UHGV virus genome: UHGV-0319381
Length of the DNA stretch: 7,118 nt
Source: a virus
Reading direction: 5' to 3' (one strand)
The translations under genes were made by a program, and so were the position numbers. Below are positions 1,868-7,118 of this stretch, one piece after another. The notes under the pieces were generated by a model. It saw only the letters and a program-made list of their open reading frames with translations, was not told the origin of the DNA and made no database searches. How positions within the stretch are numbered: position 1 is the first letter of the stretch; the number at the start of each line of letters is the position of its first letter.

Positions 1868-2056
1868 GTGTTAAGCACTGATCGGTTTATACGTGAAAAA
1901 GAATGCGAAAAGCTAACAGGCCTTAGCCGCTCATGCCGCTACCGCCTGGAAAAGGCCGGACAATTCCCATCACGTCGTAAACTTGGCGGTCGTTCCGTTG
2001 GCTGGTCTTTATCCGAGGTTCTGGCCTGGAAGGATAGCTGCAAGGCAGTTCATTAA
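1868..2056 (+). CDS. alpA: AlpA-family transcriptional regulator / excisionase-like DNA-binding protein (62 aa)
   Basis: GTG start with GGGGG RBS 5 nt upstream. The sequence (LTGLSRSCRYRLEKAGQFPSRRKLGGRSVGWSLSEVLAWK) matches the AlpA pattern (TG..R...Y......FP....LG..SVGW...E...W) and sits directly downstream of int, as in P4-like and PICI elements. Confidence 0.85.
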   Translation: MLSTDRFIREKECEKLTGLSRSCRYRLEKAGQFPSRRKLGGRSVGWSLSEVLAWKDSCKAVH

Positions 2057-2202
2057 TCACGCTGGCGGCACACAGCCGCCACACATCAATCATCTGAACA
2101 CAGAGCTATAACCATGAAGATTGAATATACGCCAGAACGTGGGCGGGGATTCGTTCGCCCTGGTGAGACTGGAAAACCACAAAATTGGGGTTTTTCAGGC
2201 AT

Positions 2203-2230
2203 AAAAAAAGCGGCCCCGAAATGGAGCCGC
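2203..2230 (-). terminator. Probable intrinsic terminator for the minus-strand RHH/57-aa cassette (possibly bidirectional)
   Basis: Stem GCGGC (2210-2214) pairs with GCCGC (2226-2230); on the minus strand it is followed by a T7 run (complement of A-run 2203-2209). It lies about 95 bp past the minus-strand stop at 2326. Confidence 0.4.
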
Positions 2231-2325
2231 CTTTCTGAACAGATAACACGCTGCGCCGTTTGTGTGTGTGATCCCAAACATAAGCACGGGGATGATAGCC
2301 GCTATCAGGCTGGTGGGCAATGCAA

Positions 2326-2499
2326 TCAGTCTGGTTCAGTTCGTTGCCATACCTGCAATGAGCGCTTTTCCCTGTACTCTTTAAGGAATTGCTCAAGGGC
2401 AAAAGCACATGGCGCGAATCTTTCTGATTCATGCTCTATCTTTCTGCGCCGTCTTTTCCGTGCCGGTGATAATGTTTTGGTCAATTCTTTATCGGTCAT
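2326..2499 (-). CDS. Hypothetical small basic protein (57 aa, MTDKELTKTLSPARKRRRRKIEHESERF...)
   Basis: ATG at 2499 with AGGA 7 nt upstream; same strand as and 57 bp downstream of the RHH gene; followed by the terminator-like hairpin. An alternative start at 2514 gives 62 aa. No family recognised. Confidence 0.3.
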   Translation of the reverse strand: MTDKELTKTLSPARKRRRRKIEHESERFAPCAFALEQFLKEYREKRSLQVWQRTEPD

Positions 2500-2556
2500 T
2501 GTGTTGTCCTGCATAGCAATGCGCCGTAATACCTCACACCACGGCGCTGATAGTGA

Positions 2557-2862
2557 TTATTCTGATTCTTTGGCCTTGCGGCGCTGTAGTTCTTCACGAG
2601 CGATGGCGATAAGTTGCCCGAGTTCTTCCGTAGCTTTAATACCAATTTTTTCCACTTGCGCCAATGCATCGAGAGAAGAAATCAGAGGATTTTCACTGCT
2701 TCCTTCTGCCTGGCGGCGGGCGATCTCCCCGCGCATGGCGGTTACTATGAATCCGGCGTTGCTTTCGCCGTCCAGTTTTACGGATTCCATGCCATCAAAA
2801 GCATCATGTGGGATACGAATTGAAATCTGTTTTGATTTGTCGTTGATAGTGTTTTTTGCCAT
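2557..2862 (-). CDS. Arc/Mnt-like ribbon-helix-helix DNA-binding protein, candidate repressor (101 aa)
   Basis: ATG at 2862 with AGGAGA RBS 6 nt upstream (complement of 2869-2874). The N-terminus KQISIRIPHDAFDGMESVKLDGESNAGFIVTAMRGEI fits the RHH pattern of a beta-strand with R-x-P followed by two helices. It is divergent from the rightward operon, with operators between them. Confidence 0.55.
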   Translation of the reverse strand: MAKNTINDKSKQISIRIPHDAFDGMESVKLDGESNAGFIVTAMRGEIARRQAEGSSENPLISSLDALAQVEKIGIKATEELGQLIAIAREELQRRKAKESE

Positions 2863-2884
2863 GTGCATTCTCCTAAACAAAAGA

Positions 2885-2960
2885 TGTGATTCAGTATACA
2901 CAAAAAAGAATCACAAAAAACACTTGACCTGTGATTCAGTTGAATTTAATTTAAATCACA
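2885..2960. promoter_or_regulatory. Divergent promoter/operator region: two copies of a palindromic operator TGTGATTCAGT-N-(G/A)AATCACA flanking a TTGACC -35 box
   Basis: Operator 1: TGTGATTC 2885-2892 with GAATCACA 2908-2915. Operator 2: TGTGATTC 2930-2937 with AAATCACA 2953-2960. The two are 45 bp apart. TTGACC at 2924-2929, then 17 bp to TAATTT at 2947-2952, so operator 2 overlaps the putative rightward promoter. Confidence 0.45.
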
Positions 2961-3049
2961 CCTCAGTAAGAGGATGTAAACGACAACGCCCCGAACTGTT
3001 TGCGGCAGTAGCGGGGCGTCTAACCAAACCGTTAACAGGAGTAACGATT

Positions 3050-3247
3050 ATGGCTGGAACACAGCATACCCCACGTCTGGCGCACACACAAACTGCCTTT
3101 GTGTGGCGTTTTCTGGCACTAAGTGCCGGAGAATCTCAAATCATCCACGTAACCGCCTGGACGGAACGCGAAGCGCGTAGCCGTTGCCCGTCCGGTTGTG
3201 TTGCTGTATTCGCCGCCCGTATTCGTCAGGGGTCACATCATGCGTAA
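3050..3247 (+). CDS. Small protein paralog A (65 aa) with FVWRF...TEREAR...ARIRQG..HA motifs; possibly the Icd-like/Ash-like small-protein family of P4-like elements (name uncertain)
   Basis: ATG at 3050 with ACAGGAG RBS and 8-nt spacer. Paralogous to 3534-3704. It is the only part of the long 2114-3247 ORF that looks coding. Confidence 0.55.
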   Translation: MAGTQHTPRLAHTQTAFVWRFLALSAGESQIIHVTAWTEREARSRCPSGCVAVFAARIRQGSHHA

Positions 3248-3533
3248 AAACCGCTTGCAAAAAATTATCACGGGGCTGTATGCTTCCCCCGTCGCCCACA
3301 TGGCGACCGGGTTTGACAGCCTGAATACTACAGCGGACAGCCGCTTACATTCCGATATGCGGTTTTTTTGTGTCCGTAAACCTACCCATACCCGCATTAT
3401 GGCGGGGCGTAACGGGGGAGCCTTTGCGCTCGCTGGTTCCTGTAGTGCCAGTCTGTCAACCCTGTTACGTCTCGCCACCATGTTTGACAGCGTAGTAGCG
3501 AGACTCCTTAATTTCACTACAGGAGCCTTTCAC

Positions 3534-3704
3534 ATGGCTGTATTCGCACGCCCTTATTTTGTCTGGCGCTTTATGCAGTGCCTGACAGACAGCATTGCAA
3601 TATTCACCGTTACCGCTGCCACTGAGCGCGAAGCACGTGCACAGCTGCCGCACGCACATCTGATTTTTGTCGCCCGTATTCGTCAGGGGGTGTGCCATGC
3701 CTGA
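3534..3704 (+). CDS. Small protein paralog B (56 aa) with the same FVWRF...TEREAR...FVARIRQG..HA motifs
   Basis: ATG at 3534 with identical ACAGGAG RBS and 8-nt spacer; shares a 19-bp identical stretch (GCCCGTATTCGTCAGGGG) with paralog A. A possible TTGACA-N17-CTTAAT promoter lies at 3484-3512. An alternative in-frame start at 3240 (154 aa) is not excluded. Confidence 0.55.
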   Translation: MAVFARPYFVWRFMQCLTDSIAIFTVTAATEREARAQLPHAHLIFVARIRQGVCHA

Positions 3705-4017
3705 TATGTCAAATTACCAGTACCTGATTAATCCGCATTTTAACTGTGAGCATGATATTGCTAAAAAAGTTTATTCCGCTGCGGATGGGGCTACTGACAA
3801 TATATCAATGGCTGTTGCGTCAATTGGTAGCCTGATGTGGCATGCGTCAGAAAATGAGGACTATGACGAAAAGGCCATGCGCATTGATATGGGTAATATT
3901 GGTTTGTTACTGGCAATGCTTGGACATTTTGATATTTCGTTACGGTGCACCATTGGAAATGCCACAGATGCATTAAATGCTATAAAGAAAGCGAATACTG
4001 ATTCAAATCGGGGATAA
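3697..4017 (+). CDS. Hypothetical protein (106 aa)
   Basis: ATG at 3697 with GGGGG RBS 6 nt upstream; start overlaps the stop of paralog B (ATGCCTGA). No family recognised. Confidence 0.5.
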   Translation: MPDMSNYQYLINPHFNCEHDIAKKVYSAADGATDNISMAVASIGSLMWHASENEDYDEKAMRIDMGNIGLLLAMLGHFDISLRCTIGNATDALNAIKKANTDSNRG

Positions 4018-4023
4018 ATAATC

Positions 4024-4323
4024 ATGAGAGCGTATTTATCTGGCTTTACTGCCAGCGGTTATGCACACCCCAAAATTATCCCCGGCGCTATTTATCTGGA
4101 TAAGAACGGTAACAGAGTAACGGTAAAAGAACTGATGTTTGACCGTGTGTATTTTATTCGTGATGGCTATTCATTTCATAGTTCGCTGAACGTGGAGATC
4201 TTTATTAGCAGATTCCGGCGGGAAATCCCGCTTTCCAGAAATAACCATGTGTCATGTATGGATGTTGATAAAAAACTACAGGAACTGAAAAACATGATTG
4301 CCGCGTGGAGAGAGCAGAAATGA
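4024..4323 (+). CDS. Hypothetical protein (99 aa) immediately upstream of, and translationally coupled to, the alpha-like gene
   Basis: ATG at 4024 with GGGGA RBS about 9 nt upstream; its TGA stop overlaps the ATG of the next gene (ATGA at 4320-4323). Confidence 0.5.
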   Translation: MRAYLSGFTASGYAHPKIIPGAIYLDKNGNRVTVKELMFDRVYFIRDGYSFHSSLNVEIFISRFRREIPLSRNNHVSCMDVDKKLQELKNMIAAWREQK

Positions 4324-6137
4324 AAAAAGCGCCAAATTTAAAACACCAGCCGCGTGACAAAATGACGGAAGTCATCATTTTTGCGGGTAGTGATGCGTGG
4401 GCACATGCGAAGCAGTGGCAGGAACAGGACGGGCGACTGGCTGGCGATAACGTGCCACCTGTCTGGCTTGGAGAGCAACAACTTGCCGAACTGGACAACC
4501 TGCAAATCGTACCGGACGGACGCTATCGCGTGCGTCTCTACCAGGCGGGGTTATTGCGTCCGGGGCTTGTTAATACCATCGGGCAGAAACTGGCAGCGGC
4601 AGGTGTCAGGGATGCTGATTATTACCCTGAAGGAATGCACAGCCAGAAACGGGAGAACTGGCGCGAATATCTGGAACGTGAGCGGGGAGAGCTGGCGGAA
4701 AAGAAAAAGGTAGTTGAACTGCCTGTAAAGAAAAAAGAGCGGGTAAAAGACGATAACGCTTCATCACTGGCGCTTAACCAGATGGGAGCAAGTCAACGCG
4801 GCGAAGTTCTCCTGGCACATTATGGCGGTGAACTGGCGATTCATGCTGACTCTGACACTGTTCACTATTACAACGGCGTTGTATGGGAGCCAGTACAGGA
4901 TAAAGAATTACAGCGAGCTATGGCGCAGATTTTCATTGATGCGGAGATCAGCTATTCGCAGAACGCCATTAAATCGGCGGTCGATACCATGAAGTTAAGT
5001 TTGCCTGTAATGGGGAATACAGCCCGTAACCTGATTGGATTCAGTAACGGTGTTTTTGATACCCGGACAGGCGATTTTCGGGAGCATAACAAAAACGACT
5101 GGTTGTTAATTGCCAGTGAATTACCTTTCAGCCCACCAGCAGAGGGGGAAACGCTGGCAACACATGCGCCGAATTTCTGGAAGTGGTTACGCCGTTCGGT
5201 GGCTGAGAATGACCGCAAGGCGGATCGCGTACTGGCTGCATTATTCATGGTGCTGGCGAACCGGTACGACTGGCAGTTATTCATTGAGGTAACAGGTCCA
5301 GGGGGAAGTGGTAAAAGCGTGATGGCGGAGATTTGCACCATGCTGGCGGGTAAGGCCAACACGGTATCGGCAAGCATGAAGGCGCTGGAAGATGCCAGGG
5401 AACGCGCGTTAGTGGTTGGCTTTTCGCTGATTATCATGCCGGATATGACCCGTTACGCTGGTGATGGCGCAGGAATTAAGGCCATTACAGGCGGTGACAA
5501 GGTGGCAATCGACCCGAAGCATAAAGCCCCCTACTCAACACGCATTCAGGCGGTAGTGTTGGCGGTGAACAATAACGCCATGTCATTCAGTGACCGCAGC
5601 GGGGGGATTTCACGTCGTCGGGTGATATTCAATTTTTCGGAGGTTGTACCGGAAAACGAACGCGACCCCATGCTGGCAGAAAAAATAGAAGGAGAGCTGG
5701 CGGTTGTGATTCGCCACCTGCTTACTCGTTTTTCTGACCAGGACGCAGCTAAACGCCTGCTGTATGAGCAGCAGAAATCAGAAGAAGCTCTGGTGATAAA
5801 ACGCGAGGGCGATTCGCTGGTGGACTTCTGCGGCTATCTCATGTCGTCGGTAATGTGTGATGGTCTGTTAGTGGGTAATGCCGAAATTATTCCGTTCAGT
5901 CCGCGCAGGTATCTTTATCACGCCTATCTGGCATATATGAGGGCACACGGATTCGGTAAACCTGTAACACTGACGCGCTTCGGTAAAGATATGCCGGGGG
6001 CAATGGCGGAATATGGCAGGGAGTATATGAAACGGAAAACGAAGCACGGTTTGCGTTCAAACGTGACACTGACGGAGGAATCAGAAGACTGGATGCCATC
6101 ATGTGTATCGGTCACTAATGACGACAGCAAAAATTAA
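4320..6137 (+). CDS. P4 alpha-like replication protein: SF3-type helicase / phage-plasmid primase P4-family C-terminal region (605 aa)
   Basis: ATG at 4320 with GGAG RBS; an alternative GTG at 4305 gives 610 aa. Walker A VTGPGGSGKS at about residues 325-333 and Walker B-like hydrophobic-D (LIIMPD). A long C-terminal region is followed immediately by TGTTCACC iterons. The N-terminal roughly 300 aa carry no primase signature I can recognise by eye. Confidence 0.8.
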   Translation: MKKAPNLKHQPRDKMTEVIIFAGSDAWAHAKQWQEQDGRLAGDNVPPVWLGEQQLAELDNLQIVPDGRYRVRLYQAGLLRPGLVNTIGQKLAAAGVRDADYYPEGMHSQKRENWREYLERERGELAEKKKVVELPVKKKERVKDDNASSLALNQMGASQRGEVLLAHYGGELAIHADSDTVHYYNGVVWEPVQDKELQRAMAQIFIDAEISYSQNAIKSAVDTMKLSLPVMGNTARNLIGFSNGVFDTRTGDFREHNKNDWLLIASELPFSPPAEGETLATHAPNFWKWLRRSVAENDRKADRVLAALFMVLANRYDWQLFIEVTGPGGSGKSVMAEICTMLAGKANTVSASMKALEDARERALVVGFSLIIMPDMTRYAGDGAGIKAITGGDKVAIDPKHKAPYSTRIQAVVLAVNNNAMSFSDRSGGISRRRVIFNFSEVVPENERDPMLAEKIEGELAVVIRHLLTRFSDQDAAKRLLYEQQKSEEALVIKREGDSLVDFCGYLMSSVMCDGLLVGNAEIIPFSPRRYLYHAYLAYMRAHGFGKPVTLTRFGKDMPGAMAEYGREYMKRKTKHGLRSNVTLTEESEDWMPSCVSVTNDDSKN

Positions 6138-6670: not shown

Positions 6671-7118
6671 CAGCACAGATAGCGGCTTACGGGCGGCTGG
6701 TGGCTGACCCGCAGTTAAAGACCACCAGCAAAGGGACACAAATGGCGATGGCGAGTATGGCGGTTCCCCTGCCGTGCAGCCAGGCAGATGACGGAACGGC
6801 GACGATGTGGTTATCTGTCCTGGCGTTTGGCAGACAGGCCGACGCACTGGCAAAACACCACAAAGGCGAACTGGTGAGCGTGGCGGGTAACATGCAGGTG
6901 AGCCAGTGGACAGGCCAGAACGGGGAAACGCGGCAGGGCTGGCAGGTTATTGCAGACAGCGTAATCAGTTGCTTAAAACGGTATGTTATCCCCGTACGGA
7001 TCAACATTTCCCGCCTGTTGTTTTGCCCTGTTCAGCGCGTCAGTAGCCTGGCCCTGTTGAGCTTTTTTGCCGCCCGGTCGCGCCGTTCGCGCACTGATTA
7101 CGCTGTCTGCAATAACCT
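6667..7118 (+). CDS. SSB-like OB-fold single-stranded DNA-binding protein, 3'-partial (runs off the window)
   Basis: ATG at 6667 with GGAG RBS. IAAYGRLVADPQLKTTSKGTQMAMASMAV...WLSVLAFGRQADALAKHHKGELVSVAGNMQVSQWTGQNGETRQGWQVIADSV aligns by eye with the bacterial SSB OB-fold pattern (VGRLG.DPE.R.T..G...A.F..A...W....A.G..AE.A..YL.KGS.V...G.L....W.D..G..R....V.A). No stop before the window end; the region after the OB fold is atypical (hydrophobic/basic rather than Gly-rich acidic tail). Confidence 0.55.
   Translation, partial: MTAQIAAYGRLVADPQLKTTSKGTQMAMASMAVPLPCSQADDGTATMWLSVLAFGRQADALAKHHKGELVSVAGNMQVSQWTGQNGETRQGWQVIADSVISCLKRYVIPVRINISRLLFCPVQRVSSLALLSFFAARSRRSRTDYAVCNN

Follow-up and report, generated by a model that had tools for sequence, protein, structure and literature searches.

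Icd-like genes on both sides of a C4-type antisense RNA gene in a satellite-like element of Escherichia coli: a probable variant of the P1/P4 immunity switch

The two Icd-like genes

The DNA stretch considered here (the window) comprises 7,118 nucleotides of the viral genome UHGV-0319381, and its positions 3,050 to 3,704 hold two short open reading frames (ORFs) of the Icd-like type, copy 1 and copy 2, which an initial annotation, made from the sequence alone, described as a tandem duplicated cassette of diversifying effectors. It was found that the spacer of 286 bp between the two ORFs contains a C4-type antisense RNA gene together with its target sites, and that a 154-codon open frame runs through the RNA gene and has copy 2 as its 3' part, both of which had been overlooked. 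The protein-level features of the locus are the following:

3050..3247, + strand: Icd-like copy 1, 65 aa (ATG 3050, TAA 3247)
3534..3704, + strand: Icd-like copy 2, 56 aa (ATG 3534, TGA 3704), the gene at the kil/icd position, nested in the eta-like frame
3240..3704, + strand: 154-codon eta-like open frame, starting with an ATG that overlaps the copy 1 stop (ATGCGTAA); it crosses the C4 promoter, the a1/b1 sites, C4 and the a2/b2 sites and enters copy 2 in the same phase
3214-3232, + strand: 19-nt block CGCCCGTATTCGTCAGGGG, copy-1 instance, an exact repeat of the copy-2 instance
3671-3689, + strand: 19-nt block CGCCCGTATTCGTCAGGGG, copy-2 instance, which supplies the Shine-Dalgarno (SD) sequence for the coupled downstream ORF

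The two small ORFs of 65 and 56 aa, with FVWRF, TEREAR and ARIRQG common to both, are present as initially described, and they are paralogs with 25/49 identities (51%, E 3e-13, BLASTP), the differences being located mostly in the middle of the domain. The suggested resemblance to Icd-like proteins was borne out by the NCBIfam hidden Markov model NF033153 ('host cell division inhibitor Icd-like protein'), which matches copy 1 at 64.8 bits and copy 2 at 53.7 bits, the curated cutoff being 25 bits; this family match is accompanied by conservation among related elements (see below). The other suggested resemblance, to the Ash proteins, had to be dropped, since neither ORF matches PF10554: the search of Pfam, with Phage_ASH (PF10554) included, gave no match at E<=1 for copy 1, copy 2, the 154-aa product of the long frame or its residues 1-98. 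In a three-way alignment with Icd of phage P1, the residues F, W-R-F, V.A.TE.EAR, P and F.AR are kept in both copies, which align across the segment equal to the FtsZ-binding core of P1 Icd (aa 12-51). Binding of P1 Icd to FtsZ blocks the formation of the Z-ring, and aa 12-51 have been found sufficient for both the FtsZ binding and the division block in a 2025 study (PMC11897509).

The ratio of nonsynonymous to synonymous substitution rates (dN/dS) in the Icd core equals 0.29 for copy 1 (25 distinct alleles) and 0.33 for copy 2 (related elements), and therefore both are real protein-coding genes; purifying selection acts on both copies. The database search for relatives of copy 1 returned 111 clusters, nearly all of E. 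coli/Shigella and already named Icd-like. The AlphaFold2 model of copy 1 has a beta-beta-alpha-beta order at a predicted local distance difference test score (pLDDT) of 74, and its Foldseek comparison with PDB and BFVD gave no significant neighbour, the best one being another Icd-like protein (E 0.04). Both ORFs of the window also match phrog_1743 and phrog_6196, whose PHROG label 'transcriptional repressor' is probably inherited from the cI annotation of phage P4. The tblastn search with copy 2 against phage genomes (2.3 Gb) returned nothing at E<=0.01, the query being too short, and P1 and P4 were compared directly in its place.

The start context ACAGGAG-N8-ATGG, to which the initial annotation had drawn attention, does stand before both genes (3035-3053 and 3519-3537), but the common ACAGGAG is partly coincidental to the allele of the window. 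In the 97% identical relative L001 the context of copy 2 reads ACTGTAGGAG, with copy 1 still having ACAGGAG, and the ACAGGAG of copy 1 is also kept in relatives with a different b2; the copy-2 bases ahead of GGAG are part of b2, a hypervariable target of the C4 RNA. The exact 19-bp block was likewise found as described. It is composed, in both copies, of the ARIRQG codons and the GGGG Shine-Dalgarno of the overlapping next ORF, which gives one reason why it is conserved, and recombination evidently uses it as a joint.

The C4 antisense RNA gene and its target sites

The RNA-level features of the spacer, with a', the b' loop and their target sites placed by the P1 annotation as the key (a1 and b1 being also seen to covary, and a2 and b2 to form the inverted repeats I3/I5), are the following:

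3255..3284, + strand: putative constitutive C4 promoter TTGCAA-18-TATGCT, the positional homolog of P1 P1c4/P51b and P4 PLE
3278-3327, + strand: c4-a1b1 element, Rfam RF03163, 46.8 bits vs gathering score 46.7
3291..3369, + strand: IsrK/seqA-like leader, with a terminator hairpin at 3341-3362 followed by a U-run at 3363-3369 (fold prediction)
3313-3319, + strand: a1, TTGACAG, pairs with a'
3327-3333, + strand: b1, ACTACAG, pairs with b'
3395-3482, + strand: C4-type antisense immunity RNA, Rfam RF01695, 72.3 bits (gathering score 45), full length 1-87
3435-3447, + strand: C4 b' loop, GGTTCCTGTAGTG
3453-3459, + strand: C4 a', CTGTCAA
3484-3490, + strand: a2, TTGACAG, pairs with a'
3515-3527, + strand: b2, CACTACAGGAGCC, contains the copy 2 SD and pairs with b'

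Our own covariance model R1 scores 99.5 bits at 3395-3482, the C4 region has ~80% DNA identity to P1 c4, and the RNA folds at a minimum free energy of -46 kcal/mol (z -5.65). The Rfam match to isrK at 3291-3369 amounts to 35 bits, under the gathering score of 50. The hexamers of the C4 promoter are located at an equal position across all the satellite types.

When duplexes with b' were scored by sliding along the whole window, b2 with the ribosome site of copy 2 came out best (-23.8 kcal/mol vs mean -8.7, sd 3.5). The ribosome site of copy 1 was tried as a further C4 target and rejected, because its pairing is poor, it is not among the top sites and it does not covary. The icd/kil position in the C4 module, i.e., that of the first gene after C4 with its ribosome site inside b2, is fitted by copy 2 and not by copy 1. 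Judged from these pairings, only copy 2 appears to be a target of C4, with copy 1 outside the C4 control. One more candidate, the 11-nt perfect complement of b' at 4274-4284 (ACTACAGGAAC), 36 nt before the primase ATG, does not occur in five further loci that share its b' allele and is therefore probably due to chance.

Covariation and the specificity alleles across relatives

IMG/VR was scanned with two exact patterns, which gave 53 and 36 loci, and the comparison set was composed of 38 loci carrying the C4 type of the window in a satellite context, the window and L001 included; the covariation alignment comprises 25 sequences. Throughout the 38 loci the stretch from the promoter to copy 2 is near-invariant, apart from three short patches (b1, b' and b2) that vary in concert: ACTACAG, CTGTAGT and ACTACAGGAG in the window, ACTGTAG, CTACAGT and ACTGTAGGAG in L001, and AGCAAAG, CTTTGCT and AGCAAAGGAG in a third locus (L133). 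There are ~13 b alleles and two a alleles, the sites a1, a' and a2 being two-state (TTGACAG or TTAGCAG), and one b allele was found with different copy-1 and copy-2 types.

For b':b2 and a':a2 taken together, 98.6% of the positions are paired in the 25 sequences, double-sided changes occur in 6/13 b':b2 pairs and 2/7 a':a2 pairs (eight in total), with up to four Watson-Crick types (<=4) per position in the covarying pairs, and the covariation score is 0.526 vs 0.18 for shuffled and <=0.11 for slid alignments. The sets b':b1 and a':a1 covary likewise, there being eight double-change pairs per set, and across both target sets 97.7-98.6% of the cells are paired, the slid controls giving 19-50%. 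Thus, because the a/b sites covary with the C4 loops, the antisense pairing must be under strong selection and has many specificities.

Module shuffling and distribution of the locus

An icd gene stands on both sides of C4 in 30/38 loci, and across these 30 loci the copy-1 and copy-2 types are kept as distinct lineages. In nine of them a second C4 of the P4 type, detected by our own covariance model, is located just ahead of copy 1. More elaborate arrangements were found as well, such as a tandem array of three C4 genes that differ in their a' and b' alleles (L147, 1090-1876), and the order isrK, P4-type C4, icd, a1b1, P1-type C4, icd (L139, 2766-3429), ahead of which lies a truncated icd fragment whose b2 site matches the second C4. 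At the other extreme, the element of E. coli strain PEC122 (L002, 1701-1898) has a single icd gene with the body of copy 1 and the tail of copy 2 joined inside the 19-nt block, everything between the copies being missing and no C4 being found by our own covariance model; it would be a natural satellite variant that relies on protein control only. Other chimeras exist, e.g., P0072 and P0109, with TEREAR as a joint, and the flanking genes are mosaic among the related loci. Related elements carry one, two or three modules of the RNA gene with icd, or fusions of the copies, and the conserved 3' ends of icd seem to be the joints where modules get duplicated, swapped and deleted.

Among 5,426 complete E. 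coli genomes, 111 hold the stretch of copy-1 tail, C4 and copy-2 head with a query coverage of 80% or more and 921 hold parts of it, and RefSeq carries 'Icd-like (x2)' at the icd-C4-icd locus in many genomes. The scan of genome contigs with a 15-nt C4 core gave 120 loci, which are mostly chance hits as the pattern is too short, and none of them had a nearby Icd motif. An Icd-like gene is carried by most E. cloacae satellites in a 2026 survey (PMC13612085). A growth-arrest system including a primase has been described in a prophage of ECOR61 (preprint, 10.1101/2023.04.06.535777), and the extension in the ECOR61 system may be an RNA region of the type found in the window.

These data bear on the reading of the initial annotation, i.e., a tandem-duplicated effector whose copies diverge toward different host or helper targets, in which case the spacer would have no role of its own. 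Such an effector would agree with two intact copies at dN/dS of ~0.3, with 51% identity whose differences fall mainly mid-domain, and with copy-1 and copy-2 types that stay distinct and conserved across 30 loci; however, the spacer is a high-scoring C4 RNA gene with covarying targets, flanked by the copies, and the ribosome site of copy 2 only is inside one of them. The comparison of copy number and divergence across related islands, proposed as a check, did reveal two intact conserved copies in most loci, but since one-copy, three-RNA and fused-copy elements are common, the copy number follows the shuffling of modules, which vary by recombination. The diversifying effector cassette is therefore considered unlikely.

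The 154-codon frame across the RNA gene

The frame at 3240..3704 is open in 36 of the 38 loci, being cut by the contig end in one and broken in a T-run in another (L199), and three different compensated +1/-1 indel pairs keep it open. The overlap of its ATG with the stop of copy 1 (ATGCGTAA) is conserved among relatives. The RefSeq annotation, made by the Prokaryotic Genome Annotation Pipeline (PGAP), labels the frame in close relatives as a 154-aa Icd-like protein, with no RNA gene in the annotation table, and phrog_29966 matches the product end to end. Ahead of copy 2, in its first 98 codons, the frame is under no amino-acid constraint, dN/dS being 0.8-1.1 there vs 0.3 in the Icd cores; residues 1-98 gave no match in Pfam or NCBIfam, and the c4 region of phage P1 has no equivalent open frame.

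The frame could accordingly be taken for a protein in its own right, to which the RNA match would be secondary, and its openness in nearly all relatives with compensated indels, the PGAP annotation and the end-to-end PHROG match would be in line with that. This is, however, quite improbable in view of the relaxed extension, in which the variation sits in three patches that covary as RNA pairs, which has ~80% DNA identity to P1 c4, itself without an open frame at this place, and which lacks any match to the two family databases mentioned. By analogy with the eta frame of phage P4, the long frame may well be translated as a regulatory act and not for a folded domain.

Upstream and neighbouring features

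The features on the two sides of the locus are the following:

2557..2862, - strand: divergent YlcI/YnfO-family gene (RefSeq annotation of L001)
2885-2915 and 2930-2960: two operator-like inverted repeats TGTGATTC-N15-GAATCACA, 45 bp centre to centre, between the YlcI/YnfO-family gene and copy 1
2924-2929: -35-like hexamer TTGACC, flanked by the two operator-like repeats, of the putative regulated promoter 'P_up'
2987..3041, + strand: copy 1 leader, a strong hairpin with a degenerate likeness to the leader made up of the C4 3' end and a2/b2, ending in the SD ACAGGAG at 3035-3041
3697..4017, + strand: 106-aa ORF, the first coupled downstream gene, whose ATG overlaps the stop of copy 2 (ATGCCTGA) (RefSeq coding sequence (CDS) in L001)
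4024-4323, + strand: DUF4222 gene (Pfam, RefSeq annotation)
4320-6137, + strand: D5-type primase-helicase (Pfam, RefSeq annotation)

No Pfam match was found for the YlcI/YnfO-family gene or the 106-aa ORF. The genes at 4024..6137 are the replication module under the control region formed by copy 1, C4 and copy 2. The pattern search for the operator-like repeats gave 15 sites vs 6.2+/-2.5 expected, with four of them clustered at 2885-2960, where a protein repressor probably binds.

The leader of copy 1 folds at -27.7 kcal/mol (z -3.0), and its local alignment with 3473-3525 scores 27 vs 15.7+/-3.0 for shuffles, 5/1000 of which were as high (p ~0.005). A relic of a second C4 ahead of copy 1 was considered and rejected, as Rfam gave nothing at E<=10 in 2050-3060, only the weak likeness of the leader remaining. 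That copy 1 might be a functionless relic of shuffling whose own RNA gene was replaced, and hence a spacer or a recombination scar, is highly improbable: the likeness of its leader, the P4-type C4 ahead of copy 1 in nine relatives and the single-copy elements that work without it are outweighed by its intactness in 30/38 loci at dN/dS of 0.29, with 14 protein alleles keeping all the family-invariant residues, by the kept SD and start, and by the conserved overlap of its stop with the ATG of the long frame.

Several further observations concern the surroundings. In L001, a partial 'Icd-like' pseudogene is annotated by PGAP at 3427-3822 (window ~2276-2671), a part of the window in which no Icd motif or C4-like RNA was found; since a 377-codon open frame of the window, 2114..3247, is in phase with copy 1, this annotation may reflect over-long ORF calls in the databases. 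A GC-rich hairpin with an A-run and a T-rich stretch as its flanks (AAAAAAAGCGGCCCCGAAATGGAGCCGCCTTTCT) is located at 2199-2234, between the AlpA gene and the leftward genes, and looks like a bidirectional terminator. At the left end of the window, positions 1-125 and 247-371 form a perfect 125-nt inverted repeat (100% complementary), the right arm of which covers the start of the integrase ORF, and the Rfam match 'MIR2655' at 16-357 is this same palindrome. In two other loci (L198 and L160, 100% identical here) the segment 1-246 occurs once, in the opposite orientation and directly upstream of position 247; the left end of the window therefore looks like a fold-back or inversion, probably an assembly artefact of the contig end.

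As to the element type, the P4-like context proposed initially is supported by the integrase, AlpA and D5-type primase found in the window by Pfam, a set of genes that also counts as a marker of phage-inducible chromosomal islands. The P4 markers psu, delta and sid were not seen in the window, which ends at 7118. A major capsid gene is located downstream in L001, and because of it the element looks like a capsid-forming phage-inducible chromosomal island (PICI) and not a P4-type satellite.

Comparison with P4, P1/P7 and Gifsy-1

A close parallel in plan is found in phage P4 (L204), the layout of which is PLL/orf88 - PLE - seqA - CI RNA - seqC - kil nested in eta - epsilon ... alpha primase. 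The old 'cI' CDS of P4 (8168-8584, minus strand) spans a C4-family RNA of 74.9 bits, with an IsrK-family element of 60.8 bits ahead of it; its last 65 codons, i.e., kil, match NF033153 at 76 bits, and kil is thus itself Icd-like. Phage_ASH PF10554 matches the translated CI RNA part of the P4 'cI' frame and also the extra upstream module of L139, and the eta frame of P4 is open for 217 codons, with ATGs overlapping the stop of the alpA-like orf88. It has been described for P4 that a constitutive promoter lies inside eta, that its transcripts end early through the CI/seqA pairing and yield the CI RNA, and that Kil is translated only on read-through, while full-length Eta is made only from the upstream promoter, in coupling to the alpA homolog, Eta translation preventing the termination; Rfam models of C4 and isrK were also reported to match several Gram-negative PICIs (PMC10111431).

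The window resembles P4 in its IsrK/seqA-like leader, C4-family RNA, Icd-like gene with the SD region as the target, and coupled ORFs leading to the primase, as well as in having a long frame across the RNA gene, which shares its phase with the small gene and begins at the stop codon of the gene before it, so that copy 2 is the counterpart of kil and 3240..3704 that of eta. Unlike in P4, however, this eta-like frame is coupled to a second Icd-like paralog in place of the alpA/vis homolog, the RNA belongs by its sequence to the P1 type, neither of the copies nor the 154-codon frame matches the Ash family, and the upstream promoter region has operator-like repeats beside the divergent YlcI/YnfO-family gene.

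The immI region of P1/P7 has the layout P51a/P51b - a1 b1 - c4 - a2 b2 - icd - ant1/2. The DNA homology to P1 extends from the promoter through a1/b1 and c4 to a2, b2 overlaps the ribosome site of icd, icd is translationally coupled to the next gene, and copy 2 occupies the P1 icd position; it is the b' loop and the b1/b2 sites matched to it that set the specificity, just as they distinguish P1 from P7. Unlike the window, P1 carries only one icd, lacks a frame across c4 and has the antirepressor Ant as its cargo instead of replication genes; the Icd-like proteins of the window lack the C-terminal tail of P1 Icd. The isrK - orf45 - anrP locus of Gifsy-1 in Salmonella is a further parallel: it has a leader RNA with an internal terminator, the small ORF reached by read-through controls the translation downstream, and the short RNA activates translation in trans (PMC4825925). 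The window shares with it the weak isrK-family match, which is sub-threshold.

Proposed mechanism

The region probably serves an E. coli satellite (PICI/P4-like) for immunity and early control, and it is built on the plan of P1 immI and P4 cI-kil-eta with one extra gene. Within this reading the identity of the parts is highly probable, whereas for the eta-like bypass step, which is taken over from P4, the chances are about even.

By analogy with P1 and P4, C4 would occlude the ribosome site of copy 2 in the resting state and leave copy 2 untranslated, and the coupled replication genes would then be off through the lost coupling and Rho-dependent termination. Copy 2, if made, would by the same analogy act on FtsZ like P1 Icd and thereby block division. 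Once the upstream promoter is active, the ribosomes ending copy 1 would re-initiate at the 3240 ATG and translate through the C4 region, and this read-through translation would render the downstream expression insensitive to C4, as eta does for the transcripts from the P4 late promoter.

A broader proposal joins these elements and is offered tentatively, as its chances are somewhat below even. In this widespread class of E. coli satellites the upstream Icd-like gene would have replaced an alpA-type gene as the launch pad of an eta-like frame across C4, and would thereby let a promoter controlled by a protein repressor override the RNA immunity; the '154-aa Icd-like' proteins with the N-terminal extension and much of the 'Ash family' would be translated immunity-RNA genes; and the ~13 x 2 a/b alleles would define many heteroimmune satellite groups that swap modules at the 3' ends of icd.

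Several points weigh against this reading of the region. The mechanism in this element is known here from the sequence alone, and the binding of FtsZ by either copy is a prediction, the identity to P1 Icd being only ~35-48%. The case for the translation of the long frame seems indirect, given that the loci are closely related, that the frame is broken in L199 and that P1 does without it. The consensus scan of 2800-3800 for promoters and terminators detected no promoter on the + strand, neither the C4 promoter nor the upstream one, and therefore both are placed by inference, the former by positional homology. Its position makes the YlcI/YnfO-family gene a candidate for the repressor of the upstream promoter, this role being a guess. 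Leaky expression from the upstream promoter would also have to be tolerated in some way if copy 1 is toxic.

Implications for annotation and satellite biology

The locus represents the known immunity switch of P1/P4 in a variant form and not a new effector cassette, and it extends the P1 and P4 paradigms without a new principle. Three things seem to be undescribed: the icd - C4 - icd layout, in which copy 1 takes the place of alpA, the wide range of specificity alleles and the consequences for annotation. Among the papers listed by the full-text literature search, none combined 'C4 antisense' with satellite terms, although the C4/isrK matches in PICIs are reported in PMC10111431.

As for annotation, the RefSeq 154-aa 'Icd-like' CDS contains an unannotated C4 immunity RNA gene, and its N-terminal extension is without protein-level constraint. 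The 'cI' CDS of P4, a frame lying over the CI RNA gene, is labelled a transcriptional repressor in GenBank. Transposon hits and other genetic results assigned to ORFs of this kind may reflect the loss of the RNA.

As for biology, E. coli satellites possess an RNA immunity with many covarying specificities, which is expected to govern the coexistence or induction of satellites, and the icd - C4 - icd layout is a testable route by which a protein-controlled promoter may bypass the RNA immunity.

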